A stretch of DNA of 30,323 bases from the IMG/VR virus record IMGVR_UViG_3300028025_002014, positions 1 to 30,323 of that record; one strand, written 5' to 3'. The translations under genes and the position numbers were made by a program. This stretch comes from a virus. Lineage: Duplodnaviria > Caudoviricetes. Of this stretch, positions 1 to 29,826 are shown piece by piece. Position 1 is the stretch's first letter. Every line of letters starts with the position of its first letter. Below the pieces are notes generated by a model, which was not told the origin of the DNA, did not search any database, and worked only from the letters and a program-made list of their open reading frames with translations.

Positions 1-121
1 AAACAGATAAAATTGAAGTAAAGATAGACCGCATTGAGGCAAAATTAGACAGTTTTAAGACTGAAATTGCCTGGTTAATTATCAAGGGTGGTGCTGGCCT
101 TATCGTGATGCTTTTAGGTGC
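1..121 (+). repeat. Exact terminal direct repeat, copy 1 (copy 2 at 29669-29789)
   Basis: Base-by-base identity from AAACAGATAAAATTG to CTTTTAGGTGC; the copies diverge at 122/29790. Implies a circular or permuted unit of 29,668 bp. Confidence 0.95.
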
Positions 122-158
122 ATTAGCAGCCATTTCCAAAGTAGCAGGAGTTTGGTAA
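1..158 (+). CDS. 3' part of the holin-like gene (variant of 29557-29826)
   Basis: Same frame and stop as the end-of-window gene; ends LGALAAISKVAGVW versus LGALGAISKVAGIW. Confidence 0.85.
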   Translation, partial: TDKIEVKIDRIEAKLDSFKTEIAWLIIKGGAGLIVMLLGALAAISKVAGVW

Positions 159-162
159 TGAA

Positions 163-168
163 TAATTA
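163..168 (+). promoter_or_regulatory. TAAATA-like box (TAATTA) 5 nt before ATG 174
   Basis: Same box-5nt-ATG geometry as TerS; no SD upstream. Confidence 0.4.
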
Positions 169-173
169 CCAGT

Positions 174-515
174 ATGGAGCGAAAACAATTTTACACTATC
201 ATAGATCAACTGGCTGAAGATTGGTATATAGATGCCACATCACCCGTTAAGGGCAAATGGGGATCTAGCATACATGGCAAGAACACTGGCCCAAGACGCA
301 AGACCAATTACCAAGGCGAAGAAAATCCAATTAATGAAACGTCAGGTGAAGTGCAGGTTATCCGCTGGGCTAAGAAATCAGAATTTTGTGTTCAATGCAG
401 TAAGTTCTGTGAGGACAAAGTTGAATTGATCAATCTGGAAAAATCACAAGTCAAATGTTCATGTGGTCAAAAGTATCCTGTGATCAATCACATACTTAAA
501 AAATTGGAAGCCTAA
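174..515 (+). CDS. Hypothetical Cys-rich (putative Zn-binding) protein, 'gene A'
   Basis: 113 aa with CxxCxxxC...CxC; a homologue at 30023-30323 keeps the frame and all these Cys. Confidence 0.85.
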   Translation: MERKQFYTIIDQLAEDWYIDATSPVKGKWGSSIHGKNTGPRRKTNYQGEENPINETSGEVQVIRWAKKSEFCVQCSKFCEDKVELINLEKSQVKCSCGQKYPVINHILKKLEA

Positions 516-706
516 TGGACCCACGTGACCGCAGTCTAATTGATCGCTATGGTATAGATCAAACTAGGTATTTTCACCAATTGGCACAGGACCCAAAACT
601 CAACATATTGGATCAACTCAAATACAGTGAGCAGATCAACAGGATTAGATCAAGGTCTAAATTTAGGGCAAAAACACCTATTGCAAATACAGATCAAAAC
701 AGTTAA
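515..706 (+). CDS. Hypothetical protein, 'gene B'
   Basis: TAATG coupling to gene A; homologue at 29826-30014 (LAxDP...LDQxKYSExI). Confidence 0.85.
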   Translation: MDPRDRSLIDRYGIDQTRYFHQLAQDPKLNILDQLKYSEQINRIRSRSKFRAKTPIANTDQNS

Positions 707-714
707 ACTAAATA
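707..714 (+). promoter_or_regulatory. T4-late-type promoter box (ACTAAATA)
   Basis: TAAATA at 709-714, right after the gene B stop and 3 nt before the first stem of the putative small RNA. Confidence 0.55.
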
Positions 715-717
715 TTC

Positions 718-884
718 TGTTGAAGGGCAATTTTCTTTTGTTATCTAATGCCATTGTAATTCCAGGAGCCCTTCAACAACTAGTGGAGTAATTCTCCTTG
801 GAGAGGTTAGCCTGTCAGCAATCAAACATTGTCCCACTAGTTTGAAAACCCCTTAGGTGCAACGCTTAAGGGGTTTTCTCTTTT
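718..884 (+). ncRNA. Putative ~165-nt small RNA with two large-loop hairpins plus terminator
   Basis: Perfect stems TGTTGAAGGGC/GCCCTTCAACA (718-728/768-778) and AACTAGTGG/CCACTAGTT (778-786/834-842), bracketed by a promoter box and a terminator; no credible + strand gene. Confidence 0.65.
844..884 (+). terminator. Intrinsic terminator
   Basis: 12-bp stem GAAAACCCCTTA/TAAGGGGTTTTC (844-855/867-878) followed by TCTTTT. Confidence 0.8.
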
Positions 885-908
885 CTGAACAAAATTCTTC
901 TTTACAAG

Positions 909-934
909 CCCTTTTGATTCATATATTATAAATA
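909..934 (+). promoter_or_regulatory. Bipartite late-type promoter CCCTTTT-N13-TAAATA
   Basis: Perfect TATAAATA at 927-934; CCCTTTT at 909-915. Confidence 0.7.
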
Positions 935-939
935 CAAAT

Positions 940-1346
940 AACAAACAATTTGACAGGCTGTTTGTAGAAACCATTTCAATCATAAATCTGTCCAGTGAGT
1001 ATCTGCATTATGGCACCATATGGGGGTTAAAACAGGACCCGCCCGTAGTCAATGTCTCACTTGCGAAATAACGAGAATGGCAGAGATTATGTTTATAGAT
1101 GAGTTCCTAAACTAAGTCCGTGCAGGACATGGCAGACATGCCTAAGGTTTAATTCCGTGCTATCTCAGAGGAGAGATGAAAGTCGTAAGGCAAGAGGAAA
1201 GGACAAGACTTATTTGTAAGCAAGACAGAAGCAGTCAAGGGCATAAACATGATAAACCATCGCTTCCAGGAGTTTCAGTCCGCAAGGGCTGTTGCTAATC
1301 TATGAAGATGGGAATGAGGAATTTTAATTTAAATGATTGAATGTTT
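940..1346 (+). ncRNA. Putative ~400-nt structured non-coding RNA of unknown class
   Basis: Closing helix 975-983/1333-1341; internal helices 1087-1096/1243-1252, 1113-1118/1207-1212, 1257-1266/1304-1311; GNRA-capped hairpins 1182-1191 and 1276-1291; G-U pairs fit the + strand; no credible ORF. Confidence 0.6.
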
Positions 1347-1365
1347 TGTTAGTCAGGTGTGTTAT

Positions 1366-1539
1366 AACAATAAGGTCAGAACGCTAAAGCGTTCCAACCT
1401 TGTTAGTAATAAATGCTTCGCTTCGTCTGGCAACTCCGCAAATCATTTATTACTTCCAATTTGTTTTCTTCTAGAAGATTTAGGAAAACAAATGACATGC
1501 GAAGTAGGTCATTTGTTGGGCGAAGTAGTTCGCCCTTTT
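1366..1539. other. Cluster of five inverted repeats with GCGAAG motifs; candidate replication origin
   Basis: Stems 1379-1385/1388-1394, 1405-1415/1444-1454, 1459-1468/1484-1493, 1487-1496/1508-1517, 1518-1524/1529-1535; GCGAAGTAG at 1499 and 1520. Origin function is inferred. Confidence 0.45.
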
Positions 1540-1553
1540 ATTAAGAGGTATAT

Positions 1554-1868
1554 ATGAAAGAAGATATCGCAAAGAAACATGAACACTGCCAGATGTCAGT
1601 CAGGTGGAAGTCCATTAAGGGAACACAAATCCCCAGACCTGGACTTTTTTGTCAAGCACATGATGTATATCTGGATTGGCTTAGACCTGAAGTTGCATAT
1701 GAACTAATAGATAGTGGTCAGGTAGTTCAGGAGCTATGGCGTGAAAGAAAGAAAATAAAACCCAAAAACTCTGACCTTGGCAATGTCTTAAAGAAAAGAA
1801 AAAAGCAGCGGCTCAAGGCCAAGCAATTGAATACACAACACATCAAACAAACAGGAAGACCTTTATAA
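1554..1868 (+). CDS. Hypothetical protein (His/Cys cluster, basic C-terminus; possible nucleic-acid binder)
   Basis: SD GAGG upstream; HEHC...CQAH; Lys/Arg-rich tail. Confidence 0.75.
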   Translation: MKEDIAKKHEHCQMSVRWKSIKGTQIPRPGLFCQAHDVYLDWLRPEVAYELIDSGQVVQELWRERKKIKPKNSDLGNVLKKRKKQRLKAKQLNTQHIKQTGRPL

Positions 1869-2071
1869 TGACACACAAAACAATGAATGATTTGCCAGAT
1901 ATCTTAAATTCAATCAGTTGGCAATTGAAGCGAATTGCTGATCACTTAGACAAAGAAAATTTAAAAGAGGATACACCTGATTTGCCTATTGAATCTTTGA
2001 AGAAGTCATCTTCACCTAGGACTGTTAAAGATATATTAGGTTCTTTTAATATTAACAATGATAGAGACTAA
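1868..2071 (+). CDS. Hypothetical protein
   Basis: TAATG coupling to the upstream gene; 67 aa. Confidence 0.7.
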   Translation: MTHKTMNDLPDILNSISWQLKRIADHLDKENLKEDTPDLPIESLKKSSSPRTVKDILGSFNINNDRD

Positions 2072-2100
2072 TAGATCAAAAGTGGTGTATTTTCCACTTG

Positions 2101-2122
2101 ATATTGCACTTCAATATAAATA
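2101..2122 (+). promoter_or_regulatory. T4-late-type promoter TATAAATA with overlapping palindrome
   Basis: TATAAATA at 2115-2122; ATATTG-N5-CAATAT at 2101-2117. Confidence 0.6.
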
Positions 2123-2151
2123 TAATTATATTTAAGAAGGAAGATTTATAG

Positions 2152-2580
2152 ATGTTAGCCCGTAATAAAAGACCTTTATACAAGCGTTGGCAGCAGTTCT
2201 ACTACTCAACTACCACACCAGGTAGTCACCTGTGGCACTGCTATGGTCAATTAGGCATCAAGATGTATAAACCCTGGGCAGTGCCCAAAGTGGGTTTTGA
2301 TCTTTTTGAAGATTGGGTCTATGCAAATTTAGGTAGGCCACCCAAAGGTCTGACTGTGCTGGGACTGATTGATCGCAAGAAGGACATCCGTCCAGGCAAT
2401 CTACATTGGACCACACAGTTATGGGTGCAGAACCATCGCAGGTTTAATCTCATGCTAAAGATCAATGGGCGTAAGCAGAGCCTTGCTGATTGGTCAAGAG
2501 AAACAGGCGTTAATAAAGCCACTGCTTGGACAAGAATACATGACAAAGGCATGACAGCCAGAGAGGCATTTGAACTATGA
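2152..2580 (+). CDS. Divergent HNH-like homing-endonuclease-family protein with C-terminal DNA-binding module
   Basis: LGRPPKG..VLGLIDRKKDIRPGNLHWTT resembles the phage motif MGxRPxGxSxDRIDNDGxYEPGNCRWAT; INGRKQSLADWSRETGV is the C-terminal HTH-like module typical of that family. Confidence 0.6.
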   Translation: MLARNKRPLYKRWQQFYYSTTTPGSHLWHCYGQLGIKMYKPWAVPKVGFDLFEDWVYANLGRPPKGLTVLGLIDRKKDIRPGNLHWTTQLWVQNHRRFNLMLKINGRKQSLADWSRETGVNKATAWTRIHDKGMTAREAFEL

Positions 2581-2708
2581 CACCAGACCAACTATATCCA
2601 TTGACACAGATCAATCATGCCATTGCCATTGCCTATGGTAAGTTCATAGACAAAGCACAGATACCCACAAGGTATGAACTCGTGGAGATAGTCAGTGCCA
2701 AGACCTAA
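2577..2708 (+). CDS. Small hypothetical protein (43 aa, MTPDQLYPL...)
   Basis: ATGA overlap with the upstream stop; fills the gap between genes; below the ORF-track cutoff. Confidence 0.55.
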   Translation: MTPDQLYPLTQINHAIAIAYGKFIDKAQIPTRYELVEIVSAKT

Positions 2709-3018
2709 AGGACCATTCATTGCAGGACGCAAATATCCAGTATTGATTGATCATGATCGTCATTGGGCTTACCTACGCATGAAGGCACAGGCTGTATTTC
2801 GCAAAGAAGAGTTTGAACTTACACAGGATGAATTTTTTGAACTATGGACTCCAGACCTTTGGGTTCAAAGAGGACGCAAACCAGAAGAACTTTGCATGGT
2901 CCGTGATGATGTGGAAAAGCCATGGAGTAAGAGCAACTGCCTAATAGTCAGCCGCTATCAACAGTTATGCCGTGGTAAGAAGATGGGCAAATACCCAGGA
3001 CAATTTAAGGACTTATGA
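2695..3018 (+). CDS. Second HNH-like (beta-beta-alpha) nuclease-family protein
   Basis: GTG start with GGAG SD; FELTxDEFFELW...RGR...LCMVRxDxxKPWSKSNCLIV resembles phage HNH-like proteins. Confidence 0.55.
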   Translation: MPRPKGPFIAGRKYPVLIDHDRHWAYLRMKAQAVFRKEEFELTQDEFFELWTPDLWVQRGRKPEELCMVRDDVEKPWSKSNCLIVSRYQQLCRGKKMGKYPGQFKDL

Positions 3019-3254
3019 TGTTTGACCCAAATTTTAATCCACTGGACACACTGACCAACTTAGAGTCTGTGGTCACTCAACTGAAATCACTGCACAAGCA
3101 GAACACAGAACTGCAACGACAGATCATTGAACAGATCAACAAACACACAGAAGCCATTAACGCACATGATCTACAGATCAATGAACTGCACAACAGACTA
3201 AGACTAATAGAGGTAGCAAGACAACATGAAGCCAACAAACAAATTGAAAATTAA
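3015..3254 (+). CDS. Coiled-coil hypothetical protein
   Basis: ATGA overlap; heptad Leu/Ile pattern. Confidence 0.7.
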   Translation: MMFDPNFNPLDTLTNLESVVTQLKSLHKQNTELQRQIIEQINKHTEAINAHDLQINELHNRLRLIEVARQHEANKQIEN

Positions 3255-3387
3255 AGTGACCATGCTAGGTGGTAAAACAGCGGAATTTAAGTTTAGCGAT
3301 GCAGATCAGGCACGTGAATACTTTGACCAACTGAGAACCATTGGCGTGCTAGCAGGTGAAGCCATTAAGACAATTGAATTGATTTAA
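3226..3387 (+). CDS. Small hypothetical protein (53 aa, MKPTNKLKIKV...)
   Basis: GAGG SD upstream; fills the gap before 3404. Confidence 0.6.
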   Translation: MKPTNKLKIKVTMLGGKTAEFKFSDADQAREYFDQLRTIGVLAGEAIKTIELI

Positions 3388-3403
3388 ACTAGGGTATATA
3401 GAT

Positions 3404-3877
3404 ATGAAGACAACACACGATAAAGTATGGATGGAAGAAGGCCTGGATCTTTGGCAAGGTGCAGCCACTGCACTTAATGAAGAGATCCTACAGGGCGGAC
3501 AACTGCAAAAGAACAACCGCAGAATTTGGGATACTATCCTGCACAACTGGAACAACTATGACTATGTCAGAGTCATTGCCTTGATGCGACTGTTAATGGA
3601 AACTAATCCAGAAATGTTTGCGGGACGCAATGAAGAAGCAGTGCTCACAGCTGACATGATCCTGGGCAAGCACTGGGATAGACCCACTGGTAAAAAGAAT
3701 CCCACATGGGGTCCAGATGGTCGTGTGTTAGATCAACCTGAGTTTAAACATGATGCATGGAAGTTGATCATGGCCATGCGTGAAGTATGGAACAAAGCAC
3801 AGGGCATTGACATTCCCAATGATGACACTAGCAAAACAAAAACCACAAACAAACCTAACCTATTTGACACTCAATGA
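3404..3877 (+). CDS. Hypothetical protein
   Basis: 157-aa ORF in the co-oriented cluster; no recognisable motif. Confidence 0.8.
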   Translation: MKTTHDKVWMEEGLDLWQGAATALNEEILQGGQLQKNNRRIWDTILHNWNNYDYVRVIALMRLLMETNPEMFAGRNEEAVLTADMILGKHWDRPTGKKNPTWGPDGRVLDQPEFKHDAWKLIMAMREVWNKAQGIDIPNDDTSKTKTTNKPNLFDTQ

Positions 3878-4059
3878 ACCAACATATCTACACAGTGATG
3901 AAACAACTCTACTCAAAATATAGTGGAGAAGAAATTGCAGAAGCCATCAAACAGATCCGCAAAGAACTCACTGAAGCAGAAGAACAGGCTGCACTCAAGC
4001 GACAGTTAAAAGTCATACAGGGTAAGATCAAAGTCAATGATGACCTATCCAATCAGTAA
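3874..4059 (+). CDS. Hypothetical helical protein
   Basis: ATGA overlap; 61 aa. Confidence 0.7.
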   Translation: MNQHIYTVMKQLYSKYSGEEIAEAIKQIRKELTEAEEQAALKRQLKVIQGKIKVNDDLSNQ

Positions 4060-4183
4060 GATCATTGAATGGGGTGTATGCCTACTGGACTGGCCCAACG
4101 AGGATTGGGACTATGATCCTTATTTTGATCAAGTGTTTGTGCATCCAGGCACCAAACTCTACACTTACCTAGCACTTCGTTAA
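4037..4183 (+). CDS. Small hypothetical protein (48 aa, ...KLYTYLALR)
   Basis: Open frame ending just before a terminator. Confidence 0.55.
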   Translation: MMTYPISKIIEWGVCLLDWPNEDWDYDPYFDQVFVHPGTKLYTYLALR

Positions 4184-4224
4184 AATACAGAACTTTCTGG
4201 CAAGTTTGATTCTGTGTTTTGGAT

Positions 4225-4260
4225 AGCCCAGTTTAGTGACATTTTCTGGGCTTTCTTTTT
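4225..4260 (+). terminator. Intrinsic terminator
   Basis: AGCCCAG/CTGGGCT stem followed by TTCTTTTT. Confidence 0.7.
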
Positions 4261-4292
4261 GGACAATATGTTGCAACAAGACAACACGAGAT

Positions 4293-4321
4293 TTCGCTGA
4301 AGTCAGTTATACTATTATTAT
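4293..4321 (+). promoter_or_regulatory. Possible host sigma70-type promoter
   Basis: Overlapping -10-like hexamers (TATACT 4308, TATTAT 4313/4316); weak -35 TTCGCT 17 nt before the last; no TAAATA box. Confidence 0.3.
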
Positions 4322-4347
4322 GTTCAACAGCATTAGGAGACGCAAAA

Positions 4348-4467
4348 ATGAAATACATTGTTTTAGATTGGAAAACTTATTTGGCAGACCCAAACTATTG
4401 GCAACGGATCAGTAATGAAAAGGCAATCCCTTTACATCTTGGAACAGGATTGGAGGCTGCAGAATGA
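4348..4467 (+). CDS. Small hypothetical protein (39 aa, MKYIVLDWKTY...)
   Basis: Strong SD AGGAGA; ATGA coupling to the next gene. Confidence 0.65.
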   Translation: MKYIVLDWKTYLADPNYWQRISNEKAIPLHLGTGLEAAE

Positions 4468-4688
4468 ACCTAACTAAAGAACAAGTTGAACTAATGGAAT
4501 TACCAGAAGTCAATAAACATCTCAAGCAACTGGCCAAAGCCTACAAGTTAGACAAGCCTTTTAAGGAATGGATGACACCTGAACTGTGGGACAATTTGGA
4601 TGACATTATCAATACCCTACTGTATCTAGAAGATCGCCAACAATGGTTAGAACAGTATGGACATCTCAGAGGAGAAAACAAAGTATGA
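4464..4688 (+). CDS. Hypothetical protein
   Basis: SD GGAGG; 74 aa. Confidence 0.8.
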   Translation: MNLTKEQVELMELPEVNKHLKQLAKAYKLDKPFKEWMTPELWDNLDDIINTLLYLEDRQQWLEQYGHLRGENKV

Positions 4689-4882
4689 AATGGCTGATCA
4701 TAGCACTGGCAGTATTAGCCACTGGTTGTGCCCAAAATAACAGTCACAGACCTGAATGCCAATTTGCTAACCTAAAGCCAGGGCAAAAGTTACCACACCA
4801 CTGTGGTGATTGGGGCAACCCTGGATCAACTATTATCACAGTTAGACCCTTGCCAAATGGCACCTATGTGATCGCTAAATAA
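4685..4882 (+). CDS. Small lipoprotein
   Basis: True start at 4685 (SD GAGGAG, ATGA overlap): MKWLIIALAVLATG-C is a signal peptide with lipobox. Confidence 0.75.
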   Translation: MKWLIIALAVLATGCAQNNSHRPECQFANLKPGQKLPHHCGDWGNPGSTIITVRPLPNGTYVIAK

Positions 4883-4916
4883 AAAATAACAAGAACTATA
4901 CCTTAGGCGTGTTTGG

Positions 4917-4944
4917 AGCCCACTGTTGTAGTGGGCTTTCTTTT
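4917..4944 (+). terminator. Intrinsic terminator
   Basis: AGCCCACT/AGTGGGCT stem followed by TTCTTTT. Confidence 0.8.
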
Positions 4945-4957
4945 GACCTAAAATAAC

Positions 4958-4983
4958 CCCTTTTGATCCATATCCTTTAAATA
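4958..4983 (+). promoter_or_regulatory. Bipartite late-type promoter CCCTTTT-N13-TAAATA
   Basis: CCCTTTT 4958-4964; TAAATA 4978-4983; 5 nt before the TerS ATG. Confidence 0.7.
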
Positions 4984-4988
4984 CAGAT

Positions 4989-5372
4989 ATGGATGACACC
5001 AACGATACTCCCGCCTCTAAGCGAAAGCAACGCAAGACCGCTACCAAAGAAGTAGAAGGTGTTGTGGTAGGCCGTGATAAGAAAATAATCCCCCCAAGCG
5101 AAGTCTATAAACTAGCACAGATGGGCTGTAAGGATACAGAAATCTGCGACTGGTTTGGTATTGATGGCAATACCTTACGCTACAACTTTAGCGTAGAACT
5201 TATAAAAGGGCGTGAATCGCTAAAACAAAGCCTTAGACAAGCACAGATTAGACTTGCACTCAGTGGCAACGCTACACTTCTTATCTGGTTAGGCAAGAAC
5301 ATTCTGGGGCAATCAGAGAACCCAACAGATTCAGAAGCCAACACTCCGCTTCCTTGGGATGACGATCTATAA
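4989..5372 (+). CDS. terS: Terminase small subunit
   Basis: HTH-like LAQMGCKDTEICDWFGI, the GNATLLIWLGKNILGQ motif, and position directly before TerL. Confidence 0.8.
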   Translation: MDDTNDTPASKRKQRKTATKEVEGVVVGRDKKIIPPSEVYKLAQMGCKDTEICDWFGIDGNTLRYNFSVELIKGRESLKQSLRQAQIRLALSGNATLLIWLGKNILGQSENPTDSEANTPLPWDDDL

Positions 5373-6604
5373 TGCCGTTATCTAAACCACAGGAGACAAT
5401 TGCCCTTGACTCACACAGATTTATATGTGTTGTTGCTGGCAGACGCTTTGGCAAGACACACCTATCTATTAGACAATTATGCTACCACGCTAAGGAGCCT
5501 GACAGAAATGTATGGTATGTGGCACCAACATACAAACAGGCAAAACAAATTGTCTGGCGAAAACTAAAGCATAAACTACAAGACCTAAAGTGGGCCAAGA
5601 AAGTTAATGAATCAGAACTAAGCATTGAACTAAAGAATGGCAGTCTAATCTCACTTAAAGGTGCTGACAATGCTGACTCATTAAGGGGTGTTGGCTTAGA
5701 TTATCTAATACTTGATGAATTTGCGGACATTGATCCAGAAGCATGGTATGAAGTCTTACGTCCTACACTGGCAGACAAACAAGGCGGTGCCCTGTTTATT
5801 GGCACACCCAAAGGCATTGGCAACTGGGCACATGACATCTACAACATGCCCACAGAAAACCCAGAGCAATGGGCGTCATATCAATACACTACTATTGACG
5901 GGGGTAATGTTAAGCCAGAAGAAATAGAAGCAGCCAAGCGTGACCTAGATGTTAGAACTTTCCGTCAAGAGTTCTTGGCCACCTTTGAAACCTACGCTGG
6001 CAGGATTTACTACAGTTTTGACCGTAAGCAGAATGTGCTTACTGTGGAACCCATTGACACTTCAGTGATCTATGTTGGAATGGACTTTAACATTGATCCC
6101 ATGAGTGCAGTGGTAGCAGTTAGACTAAAGGACACGCTCTATGTCATTGACGAAATCCGTATGTTTTCTAGTAATACCCAAGAGTTGGTGGATGAAATCA
6201 AAGCAAGATATCCAACTTCTAAAGTATGGGTCTATCCTGACCCAGCAGGATCAGCCCGTAAAACAGCGGCTGGCGGCGTTACTGACCACGCCATCCTACA
6301 GAACGCAGGATTTGTGCTTAAAAGCCCAAGAGCACACACACCAGTCAGAGACCGTATCAACGCAGTGAATAGCAGATTGTGCGATTCTACAGGCGTTAGA
6401 CACCTGTATGTAGCACCTAAGTGTAAATATACAATTGAGGGCTTGGAGCGTCAAACCTATAAGGAAGGCACCAGCCAGCCAGACAAAGAATCAGGCTATG
6501 ATCACATGATGGACGCACTTGGATACATGGTAGATTACCTATTTCCTGTGCGTAAAGAGCAGCCTGAATATACACCACAACGCTGGGGCCATAAGTTAGC
6601 CTAA
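5372..6604 (+). CDS. terL: Terminase large subunit
   Basis: Walker A AGRRFGKT, Walker B LILDE, GTPKG motif, RNase H-like nuclease residues GMDFN and DHMMDALGY. Confidence 0.96.
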   Translation: MPLSKPQETIALDSHRFICVVAGRRFGKTHLSIRQLCYHAKEPDRNVWYVAPTYKQAKQIVWRKLKHKLQDLKWAKKVNESELSIELKNGSLISLKGADNADSLRGVGLDYLILDEFADIDPEAWYEVLRPTLADKQGGALFIGTPKGIGNWAHDIYNMPTENPEQWASYQYTTIDGGNVKPEEIEAAKRDLDVRTFRQEFLATFETYAGRIYYSFDRKQNVLTVEPIDTSVIYVGMDFNIDPMSAVVAVRLKDTLYVIDEIRMFSSNTQELVDEIKARYPTSKVWVYPDPAGSARKTAAGGVTDHAILQNAGFVLKSPRAHTPVRDRINAVNSRLCDSTGVRHLYVAPKCKYTIEGLERQTYKEGTSQPDKESGYDHMMDALGYMVDYLFPVRKEQPEYTPQRWGHKLA

Positions 6605-6614
6605 GGAAACCTAA

Positions 6615-8093: not shown

Positions 8094-8095
8094 TC

Positions 8096-8257
8096 ATGCC
8101 AGTTAAGCCAGTTAGAACAACACGCAATGGTCGCCCTGTTCAAGGTTACAAATGGGGCGACTCAGGTAAGATCTACACAGGACCAGGAGCGAAAGCAAAG
8201 GCCGCGGCACAAGGCCGTGCTGCCTATGCATCAGGTTATAAAGGAAAAACAAAATGA
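8096..8257 (+). CDS. Small basic phage protein (53 aa, MPVKP...GYKWGDSGKIY...)
   Basis: GAGGA SD; resembles small basic proteins seen in phage head modules. Confidence 0.7.
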   Translation: MPVKPVRTTRNGRPVQGYKWGDSGKIYTGPGAKAKAAAQGRAAYASGYKGKTK

Positions 8258-8328
8258 ACAATCCATTACCAGTTAGAGGCATGAGAACTGCTAAGAACAA
8301 AAAACGTCCTAAACCACCTAAAAGATGA
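8254..8328 (+). CDS. 24-aa basic Pro/Lys-rich peptide
   Basis: SD AAGGA, ATGA overlap; MNNPLPVRGMRTAKNKKRPKPPKR. Confidence 0.5.
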   Translation: MNNPLPVRGMRTAKNKKRPKPPKR

Positions 8329-8353
8329 CCTTCTAACCAGGTTTGATTAAATA
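8328..8353 (+). promoter_or_regulatory. Late-type promoter ACCTTCT-N13-TAAATA
   Basis: TAAATA 8348-8353 with a degenerate upstream element at identical spacing; heads the scaffold-capsid operon. Confidence 0.65.
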
Positions 8354-8411
8354 TAACACTGAGGGCTAGGACCCTCTACCAATTTACTCTTTGAAAGGGA
8401 GGCGATGCACA

Positions 8412-9077: not shown

Positions 9078-9098
9078 CTTACTTAAAGGAAAAATAAA

Positions 9099-20748: not shown

Positions 20749-20774
20749 CCCTTTTCAAAGGCTACCTATAAATA
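20749..20774 (+). promoter_or_regulatory. Bipartite late-type promoter CCCTTTT-N13-TAAATA
   Basis: Perfect TATAAATA at 20767-20774; CCCTTTT 20749-20755, which is also the 3' arm of a short GGGCT/AGCCC hairpin. Confidence 0.7.
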
Positions 20775-20857
20775 TCAACAGCGAGCGGTATTCATACCGT
20801 TGGCCAGCAAGCAGTGAGAGTCCTTAGACCCTACTGTATAACCCTTAGGAGAAGATA

Positions 20858-21361: not shown

Positions 21362-21367
21362 TGAGAG

Positions 21368-23923
21368 ATGGCACAAGCATTTACAATAACGCAACAAACC
21401 TTCAACTTTACTGCTACTGTCGTTACTAACGCACAGGGCATAACGCTGAACACCACTCCCCTGAACGTTACAGAGTATCGTCAGGGTTATACTGCTACCA
21501 TCGTAAGAAACAACTTGGGTGTCAGCACTACTGGCACTTACACAGTTAATATCTCACCAAGTCCTGTTAGTGTATTCACTAGCAGTGACACAGACATTCT
21601 AATTGGAGTCGTTGAGCAGACCATTGCCAATGTCACTGTGACCAACACAGTTGAAGCCATTGCAGTCACAAGTCCTGCAACTCCAATCACTGTAAATTAC
21701 AATCCTACATTGGTTGAACACGTCTATGACGGACAGCCAGTTTATACAACCAGCACACCTACCTTTAGAAATATAACTTTAGGTAATACCAGCACATTCA
21801 CATTCCCTGCAGATGATGGCACTAGTGGCTTTGCACTCTTAACAGATGGCAGTGGTCAATTATATTGGGGCCCAGCAGGTGGCGGTGGCGGCCCAGGCTA
21901 TTGGAGTCTAAATGATGACCTGCTGACCAATGGATTTAAGATCAAGTCAGGCACTGACACAGTTGATCTAAAGATCTTTGGTGGTGGCAAACTACTTGAC
22001 CTAGCACCTAATAGAACTTATCTAGGAACAGCCAGCAGTTACCTTGAGATCAACAACGGTATTGTCATGCGTGATGGCAACTACCGCATGGAAGTATCAA
22101 GTAGCACTGTTAAATTAGGTGATCCTAACACTGGCATTGAAATACTTGATGACATCCTTGGCACTAAACACGCAGACTTCCGCAATGGTTCAGCCCGTTT
22201 TAGAGCCAGTGAAGGCGGCATCATTGATATTGAAAACAACACTGCCGCAGTTGGTGGTGAAGAACTAGAGTATGGTAAAATTCGTCTTGAAAGCAAGACC
22301 ATTACTATTACTGCACAGAACATTGACATTGGTGCTAACTCAACTGTTACTATTGATCAAAACCTAAGTGTTCCAGGTGTTATCACAACACCAACATTGG
22401 CTTCAACTGGCAGTTACATACAGGTTCCTCCATTACGCTTTGCTGACGGATCTACACTGAGCACAGCGTTTATTGGAACAAACAGTGCCTACACCACAGG
22501 CACATTAATTCTTAATGGTAACCTAGAAACCAACGGTTACAACATTGAAGTGGCACCTGCCTCAATGATCAAGAGTTCATTGATTCAGTATCCACACACT
22601 GTAAAATTCACAGCCACTGGCATTACCTTAAACTGGAAAGGATTTGACTATCCTTACACAGGAGATGTGCCACGTCCAACTTATGCCAACATCCAGGTCA
22701 TTGACCAAGGCTTGACCAACAATGCGGCTGCTATCATCACAGCAACCAATGTTAATATTCATGCTGATAATTGGATTGATGTCAATAAGTTGCGTTTCCC
22801 TGATGGCACAACATTACAAAGTGCTATTCCAGTTAATAGTGGCACAGTGCAGACAATCACTGCCAACACTGGTATCAGCGTTTCTACATCAACTGGTGTG
22901 GTTGCTATTACCAACACAGGTGTTCGCAAGATCATTGCTGCCAACGCAACCATCAAAGTCACTGACAATGCTGATCAGTTAGAAACCAGTGGTCTTAACA
23001 CACAAACTGGTGATGTTTATGTGGGCATTGGCACACTACCCATCATTGCAGGCTATGCAGTTAATGTTGATCAAACAACATTTGAAAATTCAACAATCTT
23101 AAGTGTCAATAGTGCTACACTGGCCAATAACATTCTAGCAGGTAGTGGTATTACCATTACACGCAATGCAGGTCAGGTAACCATCAACACCACTGCCACT
23201 GCCAACATGATTCTTCAAAGTGATTTGAAGACCAATGGCTACAACATTGATGGTGAAAGCAACAGTTTAATCATCAGTGCTGGTAAGTTTAATCCGTTTG
23301 GAACAACACAGTCTAGCACAATCAGCATGCCTTTCAACAGTGCCATGCGTATTACCAGTGACTATGGTATTATCTTTGACACACCAGACGAAGATCCAAT
23401 ACAAATCCTAAGTCCTCTAACAGTTTTACACCGTGATGGATCTAGTAGGATTTCAACTGATGCACTGGGACAAACAACATTAAATGACACACGCATTGCC
23501 ATTACAGGCACCAACCGTGTGGTCATTAACAAGAGCAGTTTCTTTGGTGACTATATTGAACTAAAGACAACCAGCACTTCAGCAAGTTTGCACCTGGGTC
23601 CTGCAAAAGCGATAATTACTGCAACAGAGATTGTATTAGCAACAACCAGCACAGTCAAAGTTGGTAGCGATATCTATCACAGTCAATTGGCTGTTCAAGA
23701 TATTGTAAATTACAATGGAACTGGTCCAGTTACTGTTAGCAAAGGTATTCAATTCCCAGATACAACAGTTCAAAGAACTGCCTACATTGGTGGATTAGAC
23801 TTTGGTAGCATATCAGCACCAGCAACCAACATGGAACAGTTCTTACTACAATTACAGTCAGTAGATTTTGGAACATTTACATCACCCAGCACCTACGCAT
23901 TTGATGCAGGTGAGATAGAATAA
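21368..23923 (+). CDS. Tail fibre-like protein
   Basis: 851 aa, Thr/Gly-rich; repeats LxTNG[FY]xI x3 and [LI]xF[PA]DxTxxxxA x3; C-terminal DFG motifs. Confidence 0.7.
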
Positions 23924-23933
23924 GGAAACAGCA

Positions 23934-26900
23934 ATGTCATTACAGATTAGAAGAGGCTCAACACTACAGCGTTTATCAATCACTCCATTAGTGGGTGAAT
24001 TGATTTTAGATACAGATACCAATGAACTGTTTGTTGGTGATGGCACTACTGTTGGGGGTGTTCTTGTTACAGCACAAAGCACATCAACCTACACATTAAC
24101 CACTGCCACCACAGCCACACTGGGCGGTGTTAAGATTGGCCAAAACATCAACATATCAGCAGATGGAACTATCTCAGTCACAGGTGGCTTTGGTGCTACT
24201 GGTGCTACAGGACCAGCAGGTGCTACAGGTGCTCAGGGCAACATTGGTGCAACTGGTGCTCAAGGCATTCAGGGCGAAACTGGTGCTACTGGACCACAGG
24301 GTGCCACAGGTATTGGAGCAACAGGTCCAGGCTTTGCTGGTCTAACTTCTACCAGTTCTGTAGGTTTGGGCACAGGCTTTAAGACATTTACTGTTAATAA
24401 AGCACTTGGTGAAACTGGCTTCCAATTTGGCAGTGTAATTCGTGCGATTGCTCTAGACAGTCCAAGCAGCAGTTATGGACTTGGCGGTGTAGTCAGTCAA
24501 TTCACTGGCACAAGTTTAACCATTGGCGTTGGTGCAGTCACAGGTAGTGGCACATATTCAAATTGGTCATTTGCATTAACTGGGCTAACAGGTTCTACAG
24601 GACCACAAGGAGCAACTGGAGTTACTGGTGCTACTGGCCAAAGTGGAGATGGATTCCAATGGCGTGGTCTATGGAGTTCAGGCAACAGTTATGAATACCT
24701 AGACTTTGCAGAAAGCACTATTGATGGACAATGGTATTTTGTATTCACTCCAGGTGCAATTGATCCAGAGGACAATGTTGATCCAAGCATTAACAATGCC
24801 AACTGGGCATTGTTAGCACAAAATGGTGCTACAGGACCTACTGGTGCTACAGGTCTTACTGGTAACACAGGTGCTACAGGACCACAAGGTGCAAGCGGCA
24901 TTCAAGGTGAAAACGGACTTACTGGTGCTACAGGACCTCAGGGTGCTACAGGACCAGGAGGCACAGGCTCAGTTGGATCTACAGGTGCAACAGGTATTCA
25001 AGGCGATGTAGGTGCAACAGGAGCACAGGGCTCAACAGGACCACAAGGCGTTCAAGGATCTACTGGATCTACTGGCGTTCGCGGTGGTATTTCCTATCAG
25101 TTCAACACTGCCACAACAGATGCTGATCCAGGCACAGGTAAGTTTGCATTTAACAGCACAACTGCTACTAACATCACTTATTTGTATGTAGATTACAACA
25201 ACCACAATGGCACCAGCATGACTGCTTGGTATGATTCGTGGGATGACAGCAACAGTCCAGTTAAGGGTATGTTGGAGTTTGTCACTACAGACAGTGCAGG
25301 TGGCAACAGTCTTGTATTTGAAATTACTGGTGCAGTTCAAACTGCCAGCGGTTACTACAAGATTCCTCTAGCATGGGTTGGCGGCAATGCCTTACCTGGC
25401 AGCAATGATCTTTGGACCATTGATTTTACACGCACAGGTAACCTAGGTGCAACAGGCCCAACAGGTGCTACTGGAACACAAGGTGTCCAAGGTAGCACAG
25501 GACCACAAGGATCAACAGGACCACAAGGACCTACTGGTGCTACTGGACCAACAGGTGCAACAGGTGCTCAAGGTAATCAGGGATTTAGTTCTGGACGCTT
25601 CTATTACTTCAACCAAACAGTTACTGAAATTGGCAGTTACAAAGAACTTGGACAAAATCCAACTACTGCTACACAGCAGACAGTTACTGTTAGTGCTATT
25701 GGATCTACAAGCACATTGGTTGCAAGTTACATGAGTGATCCATTTGACTTTGAGATCATTCCTGGTGGTGTCCAACAGTTCAACCTACACTTTGCCAAAG
25801 ACAAGGAAGGTGATGATGTTCGTGCATTTGCTCGTTTAAAATTGGCAGCAAATGATGGAACTATTATTTCTACAATTGGTGACACTGCTCTAACAGCCAT
25901 TGCTTGGGATACAAACAATACAACTCCAACAGAGTTATTCACAACAATCACACTGCCAACTACAGACATTGATCCAAGTCAGCGTATGGTTGTTGAAGTT
26001 TGGGTCCTAAACAATAGTGGAACTGCTCCTGTAAATTACTACACAGAAGGCAGTGCTTATTATTCTTATGTAGTCACAACATTAGCAGCAGCCCCAGGAC
26101 CTACTGGTGCAACAGGTGCAACAGGTCTAACTGGAGCCACAGGTAGCCAAGGCGTTCAAGGTGCAACTGGCTCTACTGGCCTAACTGGTGCAACAGGTGC
26201 GGCAGGAACAAATGGTAATGACGGTGCAACAGGTGCAACAGGACCAGTTGGCCCACAAGGTAACTACGGTGCAACTGGAGCAACAGGTCTAACAGGTAAT
26301 CAAGGTTCTACAGGTGCATTTGGATCTACAGGTGCAACAGGACCACAAGGTGTTCAAGGTATTACTGGCGACCAAGGTAGCACAGGTGCTACAGGTCTTA
26401 CTGGATCCACAGGTGCTGCTGGAGCACATGGATCAACAGGTGCAACTGGTATTCAAGGTATTCAAGGTGAAACTGGAGCACACGGATCTACTGGTGCTAC
26501 TGGCCTAACAGGTTCCACTGGTCTAACTGGACAAGTAGGTGCAACTGGACCACAAGGTATCCAAGGAAGCACTGGTGCTACTGGTGAAACAGGACCACAA
26601 GGTAATGTTGGAGCACAGGGTGACCAAGGTGCAACAGGTGCCACTGGCCTAACAGGATCTACTGGTGTTCATGGTGCCACAGGTGCAACAGGCCTAACTG
26701 GTAGCCAAGGTGATCAGGGTGCTACTGGTGCAACTGGACAAACTGGTAATCAAGGTTCTACTGGAGCAACAGGCCCAGGCTTTAATTTAACTTCTACTTC
26801 AGGTCTTGCATTAGGCACAGGAACAAAAACATTTACAGTTAATCTAGACGCCACAGCCAGCGGTTTCAGTGTTGGAACATTGGTCACTGCTATTGCTATT

Positions 26901-28619
26901 GACAGCCCAGGTTCAGCATATGGTATGGGCGGCTATATTATCAGTTATAGCAGCACAAGTCTAAGCATTAGTGTTTCAAGATACACTGGCAGCGGCACAT
27001 ACAGTTCTTGGAAGTTTGTAGTTGCTGGCCTAACAGGTGCAACTGGACCACAAGGATCTACTGGTGCTACAGGACCTACAGGTGCTCAGGGTGATATTGG
27101 TGCAACTGGTGCTCAAGGCGAAATTGGTGCAACAGGTGCCCAAGGTATTCAAGGTAACATTGGTGCTACTGGTGCTCAGGGCGTTCAAGGTGACATTGGT
27201 GCTACTGGAGCACAAGGACCTACAGGTGCTCAAGGCAATATTGGTGCCACAGGTGCTCAAGGCAATATTGGTGCCACAGGTGCCCAAGGTGCTCAAGGCG
27301 ATATTGGTGCTACAGGTGCTCAAGGAACTACAGGTAATCAAGGTGCTACTGGTGCAACAGGCTTAACTGGAGCACAGGGCGATACGGGTGCTACTGGAGC
27401 ACAGGGACCAACTGGACTTACAGGTGCAACTGGAGCACAAGGTGTTCAAGGTGACCAAGGTGCAACTGGATCTACAGGACCAGGATGGGTATTGACCAGT
27501 GCTAGTGAAAACACAATTGGCACAGGAACCAAGACATTCACTGTGAATTTAAGTGCAACTGCAAGTGCATTCCAAGTAGGCAGTATTGTCAGCGTGGCTG
27601 CTATTGGTAGCCCAAGCAATGCCTATGGTATGGGTGGTGTTGTTACTGCATTCAGCGGAACTACACTCAGCATCAATGCAACTTCTACAACTGGCAGCGG
27701 CACATACAGTTCTTGGAACTTTATCCTAGCAGGACGCACAGGTGCTACAGGACCAACAGGTGCTACTGGACCTACTGGTGCAACAGGTGCTCAGGGCGTA
27801 ACTGGCAATGATGGTGCTACTGGTGCTCAAGGAGCCACTGGTATAGGATACAGTCTTGCATCTAGCACTACAATCTCCATGAGCACTGGAACTAAGACAT
27901 TTACCGTTGATAAATCTTCTACTAATTCAGCATTTGTAGTAGGTGATCTTGTTCGTGTTCAATCTAACATATATGAAACTGATTTCATGTATGGTGTAAT
28001 CACAAGTTATAGCGGAACAACATTAGAGATCAACTCAACTTATGCAAGCAGCATTGCTAGTGGCAACGATTGGAGATTTAGATTAACTGGTGAAAAAGGT
28101 GCAACAGGTGCTCAAGGTGCAACTGGACCTACTGGAGCACAAGGCGATATTGGTGCTACTGGTGCAGCGGGCACTAACGGAACTAACGGAGCAACTGGTG
28201 CTACTGGTTTAACTGGAGCATTTGGTGCAACAGGAGCAACTGGCCCAGCAGGATCAAACGGAACTAATGGATCAACAGGTGCAACAGGACCACAAGGTGG
28301 ATTTGCTGGTAGTGAAACACAATACACATGGGGTAACACAGCCGCAGGCACATATACTCCATCAGTAAGTTCTGGAACTGTGCATAAACTAACCTTAACT
28401 GGTAACGTGACAATCAGCAGTCTAAGTGGTGCAGTTACTGGCAGTAACATGACATTGATTCTTGTGCAGGATGCAACTGGTTCAAGAACATTAACATCTA
28501 CTATGAAGTTTGCTGGTGGTGTTAAGACTTTGACCACCAGTGCAAATGCTATTGATGTTGTGACAATCTACTATGATGGAACTAACTACTTGGCTGGTCT
28601 AAGCAGAGGATTTGCATAA
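23934..28619 (+). CDS. Collagen-like long fibre protein with Mtd-N-type N-terminal domain
   Basis: LQIRRG...[18 protein letters not shown]-terminus; extensive GAT/GPQ/GAQ triplets interrupted by globular modules; C-terminal [11 protein letters not shown] domain. Confidence 0.9.
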
Positions 28620-29353
28620 TGTGGTCATCGTTCAGTAAAAATACTGCACTCTATAACCCAGAGGTTCTTGATAATCTCTGGGATAGAAATGTGTTCTTAG
28701 GCAGGTTTGATGAGAACATCACTACTGACCTCACTGGACTTAATACTCCCAGTGCAGGCGGTAGTGCAGCGTTCAACAGCACTACTAAAAAATGGGGTGG
28801 TGGCAGTCTTTACAAACCCAATGGTGCCAGTTACCTAAACATTGGTGCTGCCAACAATACCAACTTCCAGTTTGGCACAGGTGATTTTACACTTGAAACA
28901 TGGTTCTATATCACTGCTATTGGCAACAGCCCAACAGGCAATTATAACTATGGTCTTTGGAGTGCTAATCAAGTAGCAGGATCAACTGCACATGGTTGGG
29001 CCTTGCTGTATAGAACAGCATGGAATCCCAAGTTCAGCATTGGACATTGGGATGGCACTACCTTCCTTGAAAACTCACAGACCAAGTTTGATTACAATAC
29101 ATGGACACACCTAACCTGCTGCCGTTTAGGAACAACCATGTATTTGGGTGTTAATGGTGTGGTGCAGAGTGTGGGCACTTGCTCAAAGAACCTAGTGACT
29201 ACTTCTACAAATACACGCATTGGCACTAATGGTTATAATGAATACAACTATACAGCCTACTTTGATGACTTCCGTGTGACCAAAGGTGTGGCCAAATATA
29301 CCAGCAACTATGTTGTGCCTTCAAAACAATGGCCAACACCATTGTTGCCATAA
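28619..29353 (+). CDS. LamG/ConA-like lectin-domain protein (putative receptor binding)
   Basis: FGTGDFTLETWFY, WTHL, YFDDFRVTKGVAKY motifs. Confidence 0.85.
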   Translation: MWSSFSKNTALYNPEVLDNLWDRNVFLGRFDENITTDLTGLNTPSAGGSAAFNSTTKKWGGGSLYKPNGASYLNIGAANNTNFQFGTGDFTLETWFYITAIGNSPTGNYNYGLWSANQVAGSTAHGWALLYRTAWNPKFSIGHWDGTTFLENSQTKFDYNTWTHLTCCRLGTTMYLGVNGVVQSVGTCSKNLVTTSTNTRIGTNGYNEYNYTAYFDDFRVTKGVAKYTSNYVVPSKQWPTPLLP

Positions 29354-29362
29354 GGAACAAAC

Positions 29363-29554
29363 ATGAATTACATTGAAACAGCAACATCATCTACAGTCAG
29401 TGCCAATGTTTGGCAATTCCACAACATCAAAGTTGAAGAGTCAAGATTTGTTGAATTTAGAGATTCAGCAGATCAACAGGCTATGATTGACCAAGGCATT
29501 GCACAAGGATGGATCATAGATCTAGGAACTTCTACTATTACATTTGAGGATTGA
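29363..29554 (+). CDS. Small acidic hypothetical protein
   Basis: SD AAGGA; 63 aa. Confidence 0.7.
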   Translation: MNYIETATSSTVSANVWQFHNIKVEESRFVEFRDSADQQAMIDQGIAQGWIIDLGTSTITFED

Positions 29555-29556
29555 AC

Positions 29557-29826
29557 ATGACCATACTGGGATCTACTACTAATGAAAAGCGTAGCCTTGC
29601 TGCACACGTAGATTTGTGTGCTCAACGCTATGCTACCCTTGATGAAAGAATGAACAATTTAGAATCAAAAACAGATAAAATTGAAGTAAAGATAGACCGC
29701 ATTGAGGCAAAATTAGACAGTTTTAAGACTGAAATTGCCTGGTTAATTATCAAGGGTGGTGCTGGCCTTATCGTGATGCTTTTAGGTGCTTTAGGTGCCA
29801 TTTCCAAAGTAGCAGGTATTTGGTAA
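29557..29826 (+). CDS. Coiled-coil plus single C-terminal TM protein (holin/XhlA-like)
   Basis: ATG 29557 with SD GAGGA; HVDLCAQRY, heptad repeat, hydrophobic C-terminus. Confidence 0.6.
   Translation: MTILGSTTNEKRSLAAHVDLCAQRYATLDERMNNLESKTDKIEVKIDRIEAKLDSFKTEIAWLIIKGGAGLIVMLLGALGAISKVAGIW
29669..29789 (+). repeat. Exact terminal direct repeat, copy 2
   Basis: Identical to 1-121. Confidence 0.95.

Follow-up and report, generated by a model that had tools for sequence, protein, structure and literature searches.

A siphovirus genome with its own virion genes, T4-late-like promoter boxes and a candidate RNA origin: a possible satellite of a T4-like phage

Gene content and genome closure

The window, by which we mean the whole stretch of 30,323 nucleotides analysed here (IMG/VR record IMGVR_UViG_3300028025_002014), is dominated by a morphogenesis module of the siphovirus type (Table 1). 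This module runs for about 24.6 kb, from terS (4989) to 29554, close to the roughly 25 kb given in an initial annotation of the same DNA. The virion and packaging proteins are thus encoded by the genome itself, as in a satellite virus, and the replication genes that a satellite virus lacks are absent, by family searches, from the window and its closed relatives. Searches of PHROGs, Pfam and NCBIfam matched no polymerase, helicase, primase, integrase, Rep, SSB or endolysin in the window, which bears out the earlier claim that replication, transcription, integration and endolysin genes are not recognisable there and adds to it a holin-like gene of the XhlA family. The longest ORF outside the morphogenesis block is 157 amino acids in the standard-code list, as had also been stated. 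The sole sigma-named row, SigM on 1554–1868, scored 16.5 bits, far short of the cutoff of 148; this identity was dropped, and the protein was seen in one other genome only. Structure prediction covered 2 of about 17 early proteins, and the absence of replication genes is therefore a family-level result.

Table 1 Features of the window (positions in the 30,323-nucleotide stretch)
Position	Strand	Feature	Basis
1–121	+	Circle closure, copy of 29669–29789	Repeat comparison, X1 unitigs
174–706	+	Two small ORFs, 113 and 63 aa	ORFs; no lysin match
844–878	+	Intrinsic-terminator-like hairpin, closes late transcription unit	Sequence
901–934	+	TATAAATA (927–934) overlapping a sigma70-like promoter, 10/12; predicted promoter of structured element	Consensus match
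1012–1317	+	Conserved non-coding structured element with covarying helices; candidate RNA primer/origin	Covariation, no Rfam family
1372–1545	.	Short-hairpin cluster, 3′ of structured element	Similar clusters in relatives
2098–2126	+	Sigma70-like promoter, 11/12, overlapping TATAAATA at 2115–2122; heads small early genes	Consensus match
2152–2580	+	HNH endonuclease-like gene	phrog_3377, E = 2.6e-17; variably present in clade
2695–3018	+	PacI-like HNH, predicted fold	Most conserved non-structural gene of the clade, 14/18 genomes
3404–3877	+	157-aa helical protein, slot before terS	No recognised fold; model pLDDT 90.6
4976–4991	+	TTTAAATA, 5 bases before terS ATG; T4-late spacing; predicted leaderless message	Sequence
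4989–9971	+	terS, terL, portal, scaffold, major capsid protein; TAAATA at 8348 before scaffold gene	Family matches
9984–20733	+	Neck, tail tube, chaperones (TAAATA at 11442), tape measure, Dit/hub, acetyltransferase, tail tip, fibre-assembly chaperone	Family matches; several names from position and DSL-LC06 annotation
20767–29554	+	Fibre operon, TATAAATA at 20767 at head: collagen-repeat fibre (Mtd_N), LamG-domain protein	Family matches
29551–29826	+	XhlA-like holin candidate	phrog_1193, E = 7e-8; Pfam XhlA below cutoff
29790–30323	+	Branch of minor co-occurring strain, outside dominant circle	Unitig depth 6.8 versus 24.6

The initial annotation took a terminal repeat to close a 29,668-bp unit. 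The end repeat is 96% identical over 163 nt, of which the first 121 are exact; beyond the repeat, the two copies are 78% alike and carry two ORFs in exchanged order. In run X1, possibly the source run of the record, a 988-nt unitig (depth 37.7) spans 28802–29789, ends in a sequence equal to 1–121 and forks into a 9,949-nt unitig of depth 24.6, which starts at 92, and a 564-nt unitig of depth 6.8, which covers 29760–30323. The fork and its depths indicate that a closed circle of 29,668 bp is the dominant strain and that the last 534 nt belong to a minor strain, whose branch explains why the repeat is exact for 121 nt only. The proposed circle thus holds for the dominant strain, with the chain from 28802–29789 to 92 and onwards contiguous in X1, and the exact repeat is shorter than the repeat as a whole. 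The clade comprises about 790 IMG/VR stretches, among which six DTR-closed relatives (G001, G003, G004, G007, G012 and G015) share both the layout and the gene gap. Replication, sigma and endolysin genes are missing from the clade as a whole, and misassembly does not explain the gap.

A search of the small ORFs for sigma, Rep, SSB or lysin folds had been proposed; two conserved early proteins were folded, of which one gave a putative PacI-like HNH and the other no recognised fold. The first (2695–3018) is predicted to encode a PacI-like HNH protein, as PacI is the top structural match of the model (Z 6.5, rmsd 4.1, 93 aligned, with the next row at 3.9), a score that lies below the noise level of Z 8; R70 and N81 are conserved. 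A sequence search of the PacI-like alignment against solved structures gave no match, and the ESM Atlas returned only viral clusters without names for the 107-aa protein. The second (3404–3877) is the foremost candidate for an unrecognised activator or initiator. Its best structural Z is 5.4, structure searches returned no sigma, Rep or SSB row, BFVD gave two uncultured Caudovirales proteins only and the ESM Atlas gave no usable feature match. Near the left end, the 113-aa ORF is Cys-rich and weakly tied to a family of about 160 aa that follows the holin-like gene in relatives (the family HMM matches the minor-strain copy, E = 5e-4). This post-holin family, Cys-rich and with no family match, was dropped as an endolysin candidate.

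Promoter boxes and the structured element

The T4 late promoter consists of an 8-bp box and lacks a −35 element (PMC2988020, in excerpt), and copies of TATAAATA had been read in the initial annotation as promoters of this type. The three exact sites in the window are not significant alone (0.95 expected; 6 of 100 shuffles reach three), and two of them, at 927 and 2115, overlap sigma70-like promoters; what stands is the TAAATA core, which lies at operon heads clade-wide. Across 80 partly redundant loci, TATAAATA occurs 57 times on the coding strand and 3 times on the opposite strand, with 19 expected on each. Of the 461 TAAATA sites on the coding strand, 59 precede an ATG by 5 nt and a further 23 by 4 nt; none of six control hexamers has more than 3 sites at either distance. 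The core stands at 47 of 52 virion operon-head genes versus 6 of 144 internal genes (14 genomes), a contrast that is inflated because internal genes have coding sequence upstream. TTG at −35 spacing is found at 3 of the 47 TAAATA heads, with 2.4 expected; hence, there is no −35 signal. The usual spacing of sigma70 promoters to the start is 6–7 nt. The boxes therefore have the form of T4-type late promoters, with a TAAATA core 5 nt before a start that is itself placed by the leaderless ATG. They share with the T4 late system (gp55, gp33 and gp45) the core, the lack of a −35 element, the position at the heads of virion operons and the 5 nt before the predicted start, whereas the window has no gp55, gp33 or gp45 in cis and the first two bases of its boxes are more variable (PMC2988020, in excerpt). 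These two bases are AA in 14 of the 47 heads, TA in 10, AC in 7 and others in 16, and the invariant part of the box is 6 bases only; this variability counts against a T4 reading. An archaeal TATA box was rejected, being contradicted by the 4–5-nt spacing and by Shine–Dalgarno-like sites.

Sigma70-like promoters are also present in the early region, both in the window and in relatives, the early genes of which carry the canonical TTGACA/TATAAT type. This arrangement is that of an ordinary autonomous two-stage phage and counts against a helper. None of the 12 gene families tested is present in all TAAATA-bearing genomes, and two unrelated podoviruses (G013 and G014) have both the boxes and the RNA element and lack the PacI-like gene; the want of a universal family and the shared boxes and element count for a reader supplied in trans. 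The same two podoviruses encode their own endolysins, which counts against a helper, and no endolysin was found in the siphophage members scanned.

A covarying element of about 300 nt occupies the place where a replication module would be expected. It matches no Rfam family at the gathering threshold (best 25 bits versus 128) and no sequence among PLSDB plasmids, and it also occurs in unrelated TAAATA-rich podoviruses without recognised replication genes. Its position, promoter and covariation make it a candidate RNA origin that would prime replication, and the adjacent hairpin cluster may provide single-strand initiation signals. A second search pattern placed 4 of its 23 matches in large-phage fragments; these were rejected because they lie inside a GroEL gene and do not fit the model. 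A reversed-pattern control for the motif was set aside, as it overlaps the motif itself.

Promoter-driven RNA can prime replication without a plasmid-encoded Rep, as does ColE1 RNA II. T4 replicates plasmids that carry a promoter and an unwinding element or a preformed R-loop; on oriF and oriG plasmids, promoter-driven RNA primes without a plasmid Rep and T4 supplies the replisome (PMC3016281, in excerpt), a likeness to the window, where the origin is a candidate only. Those origins differ in having middle promoters and an unwinding element instead of a covarying RNA of about 300 nt. The T4 R-loop origins are driven by middle promoters and unwound by UvsW late in infection (PMC3016281, in excerpt) and thus fit poorly with a late-promoter origin.

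Relatives and comparable systems

DSL-LC06 (OR003941), of the proposed family ‘Nanhuiviridae’, is metagenomic only and resembles the window in length (29.8 kb), TerL (51%), MCP (33%), layout, RNA element, PacI-like gene and TAAATA operon heads. Its record lists no replication gene, whereas the paper that describes it mentions in passing replication genes in all seven of its genomes; the available excerpt of that paper makes no mention of a missing replication module, of the boxes or of the RNA (PMC10611076). Cultured relatives, namely HTVC111P-type pelagiphages and Vibrio phage 1.157.O, are similar in TerL (50–53%; pelagiphage MCP 28–32%) but have a non-structural region of 9–13 kb with larger genes, no RNA element and no operon-head TAAATA pattern (0 of 5 heads in 1.157.O and 1 of 6 in HTVC112P). 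Vibrio phage 1.157.O encodes a helicase, an SSB-like protein and ERF, and HTVC112P encodes a nuclease and an HTH regulator. A host search with TerL against GTDB contigs returned 13 loci, none above 47% identity, and no prophage relative, and hence gave no host. Runs X4–X6 had small shares and were left out of any inference on habitat.

Gene sharing with T4-like phages is mixed. All 19 weak GenBank matches of the PacI-like protein outside DSL-LC06 are T4-type phages of 165–173 kb (E = 7e-3 to 4e-2), and for the SegE-type GIY-YIG protein of a relative the best matches are large T4-type phages, Melnitz among them. A T4 origin was rejected for endonuclease VII, the glycosyltransferase and the HNH protein of the window, for which the best matches lie outside T4-like phages, and the LamG gene (4 loci, 24–33% identity) was uninformative as a large-phage link.

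Helper-dependent elements of bacteria include P4, PICIs, cf-PICIs, PLE and Phanie. P4, PICIs and PLE integrate, encode replicases of their own and use borrowed virion parts (PMC10690885, in excerpt), in agreement with the initial annotation; Phanie has a phi29-like polymerase and a borrowed tail (PMC11476376, in excerpt). The window has the opposite gene content to P4, PICIs, cf-PICIs and PLE, with tape-measure, tail and fibre genes and without integrase, primase or Rep. Satellite viruses with encapsidation genes but without key replication genes are already known from Streptomyces: MiniFlayer and MulchRoom have genes for terminase, portal, scaffold and capsid but none for primase or other functions key to replication, and MiniFlayer also lacks an integrase (PMC10690885, in excerpt). 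MulchRoom and Ando rely on the tails of their helpers, and MiniFlayer attaches itself to its own (PMC10690885 and PMC13587820, in excerpt). These satellites have 20–26 genes and their dependence was established by culture (same sources), whereas the putative satellite described here differs from the MiniFlayer kind in its genome of about 30 kb, its full tail with tape measure and fibres, its late boxes of the T4 type and its structured RNA element.

Helper dependence and its alternatives

The full set of head and tail genes, the gap in replication, sigma and endolysin genes and the T4-style boxes, all shared with many aquatic relatives, together suggest that this virus relies on a co-infecting T4-like phage. 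On balance, and with modest confidence, we regard the window as a satellite virus that has an RNA-primed origin and depends on a T4-like phage. The initial annotation had called it the reverse of known satellites. The clade-wide gap and the T4-late anatomy of the boxes sustain that view; the arrangement is not unprecedented, given MiniFlayer and MulchRoom, and dependence on a helper is something that we infer. Expression of the small early genes would fall to host sigma70, and RNA transcribed from the structured element would provide a primer or R-loop to be extended by a replisome supplied in trans, such that no Rep protein would be needed; the PacI-like HNH may assist by nicking or binding DNA. 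A gp55-type sigma factor of the helper would then read TAAATA and turn on the terminase, head, tail and fibre operons, after which the satellite would package its own DNA into its own siphovirus particle and exit through the endolysin of the helper. Without an integrase, it might meet its helper by plasmid-like persistence or by co-entry.

It is possible, if doubtful, that the clade consists of autonomous minimalist phages, in which the structured RNA primes host enzymes in the manner of ColE1 without Rep, a small self-encoded protein of unrecognised fold, made from the sigma70 promoter, steers host RNA polymerase to TAAATA and an unrecognised small protein performs lysis. The sigma70-like early promoters are consistent with this, and a large clade without an integrase is easier to account for without a helper. 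The slot before terS is filled across the siphophage clade by a protein of about 130–200 aa of no recognised fold, which likewise counts against a helper; two of the slot families merge (probability 88), and G012, one of the closed genomes, adds a weak member (probability 57). However, families c32, c40 and c42/c39 stay unlinked (hhalign probability ≤3), the unrelated podoviruses use the same box with no clear slot member (probability ≤16), neither folded candidate matches a sigma, wHTH or Rep structure and the scanned siphophages offer no endolysin.

We consider it unlikely that the box is read by a sigma factor of some host lineage, whether an alternative sigma or a primary one with tolerance at the last −10 position, and that replication is wholly host-driven. 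The absence of a GTDB prophage above 47% TerL identity, the use of the box by unrelated small phages and the small number of its invariant bases, six, would fit; by contrast, the −35 signal is missing, the 4–5 nt to a leaderless ATG suit the T4 position of −13 to −6, and the canonical early promoters in the same genomes make the host sigma appear conventional. Loss of a replication module by misassembly, or its masking by an alternative genetic code, is very improbable: the two ends of the record do come from different strains, but the unitig chain across the junction is contiguous, the six closed relatives have the same layout and the longest open frames overlapping 1–4990 are 218 aa (table 4) and 184 aa (table 15).

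Extended beyond the window, the satellite reading would tentatively describe a widespread, overlooked guild of siphoviruses and podoviruses of about 30 kb that are obligate parasites of T4-like phages, with their own virions, no replication protein, exchangeable structured-RNA origins from which the replisome of the helper extends, and virion output tied to the gp55 sigma of the helper; as a whole, this proposal is doubtful. If it is true, hundreds of aquatic-virome contigs taken for ordinary lytic phages would be parasites of phages, and TAAATA boxes in genomes that lack gp55 would be a sequence marker for them. The range of bacterial satellite viruses, now a few small isolates from Streptomyces, would then extend to phages with full tails and T4-like helpers. 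If the clade is instead autonomous, its late activator would be one not yet known, and its origin would be protein-free. Under either reading, the structured elements of about 300 nt and about 370 nt would be RNAs or single-strand structures that are missing from Rfam.

Gene content and closure of the window

The window is a complete virus record with every convincing gene on the + strand. The initial annotation had given about 25 kb to morphogenesis, which virion genes indeed fill, and an ORF scan agrees that the remaining ~5 kb holds no ORF longer than 157 aa; under alternative codes (tables 4 and 15), the longest open frame there is 218 aa. The reported lack of recognizable replication, integration and endolysin genes was borne out by searches of 45 window ORFs against PHROGs and Pfam and of 27 against NCBIfam, which gave no match to a polymerase, helicase, primase, integrase, Rep, SSB or endolysin. 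Between the hub and tip genes of the tail operon lies a GNAT acetyltransferase gene, found at the same place in the metagenomic phage DSL-LC06 (OR003941), and the 1,561-aa fibre has an Mtd_N N terminus and long collagen repeats like those in many unrelated contigs of the same runs.

Features of the window and of stretches of relatives' DNA (L-numbers)
Feature	Position	Strand	Content or evidence
Structured element	1012–1317		non-coding, 3′ of box at 927
Small zinc-finger-like gene	1554–1868		
HNH	2152–2580	+	sole substantial nucleic-acid match in window (PHROGs, Pfam, NCBIfam)
PacI-like HNH candidate gene	2695–3018		
Gene of 157-aa protein	3404–3877		slot before terS
Boxed terS start	4976–4991		
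Morphogenesis genes	4989–29554	+	terS, terL, portal, scaffold, major capsid, neck, tail, tape measure, collagen-repeat fibre, LamG protein (PHROGs, Pfam)
GNAT acetyltransferase	15893–16339		
Fibre	23934–28619		
XhlA-like holin candidate	3′ of morphogenesis block	+	PHROGs, Pfam
Second element type	L087:10370–10830	−	
Second element type	L090:5020–5490	−	
Second element type	L092:4480–4940		
Second element type	L093:10700–11160	−	
~308-aa protein, unannotated	L150:2237–3160; L095:397–1323		
Broken Cys-motif frame, DSL-LC06	L081: about 600–730		

The terminal repeat said to close a 29,668-bp unit is exact over 121 nt only. In sequencing run X1, which is perhaps the source of the record and hence not independent evidence, a 988-nt unitig (depth 37.7) ends at 29789 (= position 121) and forks into two, one of 9,949 nt that starts at position 92 (depth 24.6) and one of 564 nt over 29760–30323 (depth 6.8). 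It follows that the circle of 29,668 bp represents the dominant strain; a minor co-occurring strain, at about one-fifth of the depth, accounts for the end past the exact repeat (29790–30323 against 122–706), where the copies fall to 78% identity and two post-holin ORFs are in swapped order. Runs X2 (subsurface) and X3 (freshwater) contained 54% and 43% of sampled words.

A TerL search of IMG/VR returned an estimated 790 stored stretches, the best 80 being 60–79% identical. Fifteen relatives' records were examined whole, 13 of them in the siphophage clade of the window (G001–G012, G015); all 13 share its layout, in which non-structural genes, most of them small, take up a few kb, and 6 have terminal repeats of 55–133 nt. 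We scanned 96 proteins of G001–G009 and DSL-LC06 against PHROGs and Pfam, left of 173 candidates once tail-region genes and repeat members of clusters were taken out, and then 94 and 52 proteins mainly of G011–G015; proteins of G001–G010 above 450 aa, which were placed in virion clusters or at tail positions, stayed outside the scan. Matches comprised endonuclease VII, GIY-YIG and HNH nucleases, methyltransferases, glycosyltransferases and Dps-like proteins, and the scanned proteins included no replication, sigma or integrase family except for sub-cutoff AAA (G011) and HTH (G012) rows. The nearest GenBank genome of this layout, DSL-LC06, has a record that names no replication gene; a passing remark in its paper places some replication genes in all seven of that paper's genomes (PMC10611076, in part). 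The early region is larger in the cultured TerL relatives HTVC112P and Vibrio phage 1.157.O, and 1.157.O has genes for a helicase, ERF and a protein of OB fold. A GTDB search gave no prophage above 47% TerL identity. The gene gap is a real, clade-wide feature. A ~308-aa protein near the early region is common to G015 and G007 (71%) and is big enough for a candidate initiator in those members.

Late-type promoters and a structured element

Exact copies of TATAAATA, the T4-style late-promoter box cited in the initial annotation, are weak evidence in the window alone (three, reached in 6 of 100 shuffles), and two of the three overlap sigma70-like promoters. What holds is the clade-wide signal of its core, TAAATA, at virion operon heads, which is strong. 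A set of 80 loci, redundant in part, has 57 copies of TATAAATA on the coding strand and 3 on the opposite one, with 19 expected for either strand. TAAATA lies 4 nt from the downstream ATG at 23 of 461 sites and 5 nt from it at 59, with at most 3 sites at each distance for six control hexamers. In 14 genomes (G010, a near copy of G003, left out), it precedes terS in 11/14, scaffold in 13/13, tail chaperone in 10/10 and the fibre-operon head in 13/15 cases, against 6/144 internal genes, a contrast inflated by the coding DNA upstream of the latter; operon heads of Vibrio phage 1.157.O (0/5) and HTVC112P (1/6) served as controls. TTG stands at −35 spacing in 3 of 47 operon-head sites (2.4 expected). 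As a whole, the arrangement matches the anatomy of T4 late promoters, which have an 8-bp box, no −35 element and gp55 as reader (PMC2988020, in part). The terS message is probably leaderless in the window and relatives, 9 of 11 boxes lying 4–5 nt 5′ of an ATG.

Near-consensus TTGACA-17-TATAAT/TATACT sites occur in the early regions of many clade members; in that of the window such sites are not in excess (7 versus 11.3 in shuffles). With sigma70-type sites early and TAAATA boxes late, the expression programme thus looks two-staged, driven by host sigma and then from TAAATA.

The structured element, which the initial annotation does not mention, is made up of invariant islands and spacers rich in indels. 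An alignment of 15 sequences has changes on both sides in 8 of the 16 pairs predicted, and 98.8% of its cells pair, versus 89.7% in shuffles (0/500) and no more than 44% in slid controls, the structure having been derived from the same alignment; 19 distinct further matches, aligned to the element model and hence biased towards it, show 100% pairing and 6 covarying pairs. It has no Rfam family or plasmid match, and its sole GenBank match is DSL-LC06. Its lead pattern recurs in 22 IMG/VR and 27 JGI contigs, each at most 34.7 kb, in overlapping sets (one JGI record shares the window's length). A second type of ~370 nt, mostly shortly 3′ of a TAAATA, occupies the same genomic place in G003–G006 and further loci (30 of 78 pairs covarying, 9 sequences); it was not found by the first model or in Rfam. 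Short-hairpin clusters follow both types. In G007 and G002, flanks of the second type after the holin-like gene enclose other sequence, possibly further element types. Just 5′ of the element in DSL-LC06, a short Cys-motif frame broken by TGA resembles by eye the zinc-finger-like gene type of the window.

An exchangeable promoter-headed element in place of a replication module suggests a candidate RNA-primed origin. T4 replicates plasmids carrying a promoter and unwinding element, or with any R-loop formed beforehand in a region of that kind, but its UvsW unwinds R-loops late (PMC3016281, in part). The element is uncatalogued until now and a testable handle.

Box readers and helper dependence

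The PacI-like protein is the most conserved non-structural protein (14 of 18 genomes), although it was not found in the closed genome G012. Its confident model (pLDDT 86) has PacI as best structural match, at Z 6.5 with the next row at 3.9, so that a DNA-binding or nicking protein of HNH fold is probable. Its weak GenBank matches other than DSL-LC06 are T4-type phages in 19 of 19 cases, and the SegE-type nuclease of a relative best matches large T4-type phages; three other accessory genes do not, leaving mixed indications of gene flow with T4-type phages.

A less likely reading is that the phage is autonomous, its RNA origin driven by the host and its small activator unrecognized. The main loophole for autonomy is the 157-aa protein, whose predicted structure (pLDDT 91) has no clear match among solved structures and whose slot is occupied clade-wide by families linking up only in part. 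Against autonomy, two unrelated podoviruses of ~33–35 kb (G013, L146–L147, and G014, L148–L149; linear records with CheckV completeness of 70% and 97%) have dense TAAATA boxes, their own endolysins and the same RNA element, and neither candidate protein nor recognized replication genes were found in them, which speaks for a reader provided in trans. A PurD-like ATP-grasp gene is present in G013 as well. That a host sigma reads the TAAATA box is unlikely, and the missing −35 signal speaks against it. An artefact is very improbable: the circle junction leaves no room for a lost module, alternative-code frames are short and the gap is clade-wide.

The best supported reading, and a somewhat probable one, is a candidate satellite virus of a T4-like phage. 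Such a helper would provide the late sigma for the TAAATA boxes, the replisome and the endolysin. The 'inverse satellite' of the initial annotation thus keeps its virion genes, missing replication genes and T4-like boxes, and its dependence on a helper is what we infer.

Lacking an integrase and Rep and having a full tail, the window falls outside P4, PICI and PLE. In gene content it can be likened to MiniFlayer and MulchRoom, satellite viruses with genes for encapsidation but not for replication (PMC10690885, PMC13587820, in part), and is unlike Phanie, which has a phi29-like polymerase (PMC11476376, in part). Neither PMC12772148 nor PMC12822802 (both in part) describes such an element, and searches of the open-access literature (satellites with TATAAATA or TAAATA, gp55, late promoters) returned no paper on such phages. 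If helper dependence is true, these phages would be a variant of satellite virus not described before in the open-access literature.
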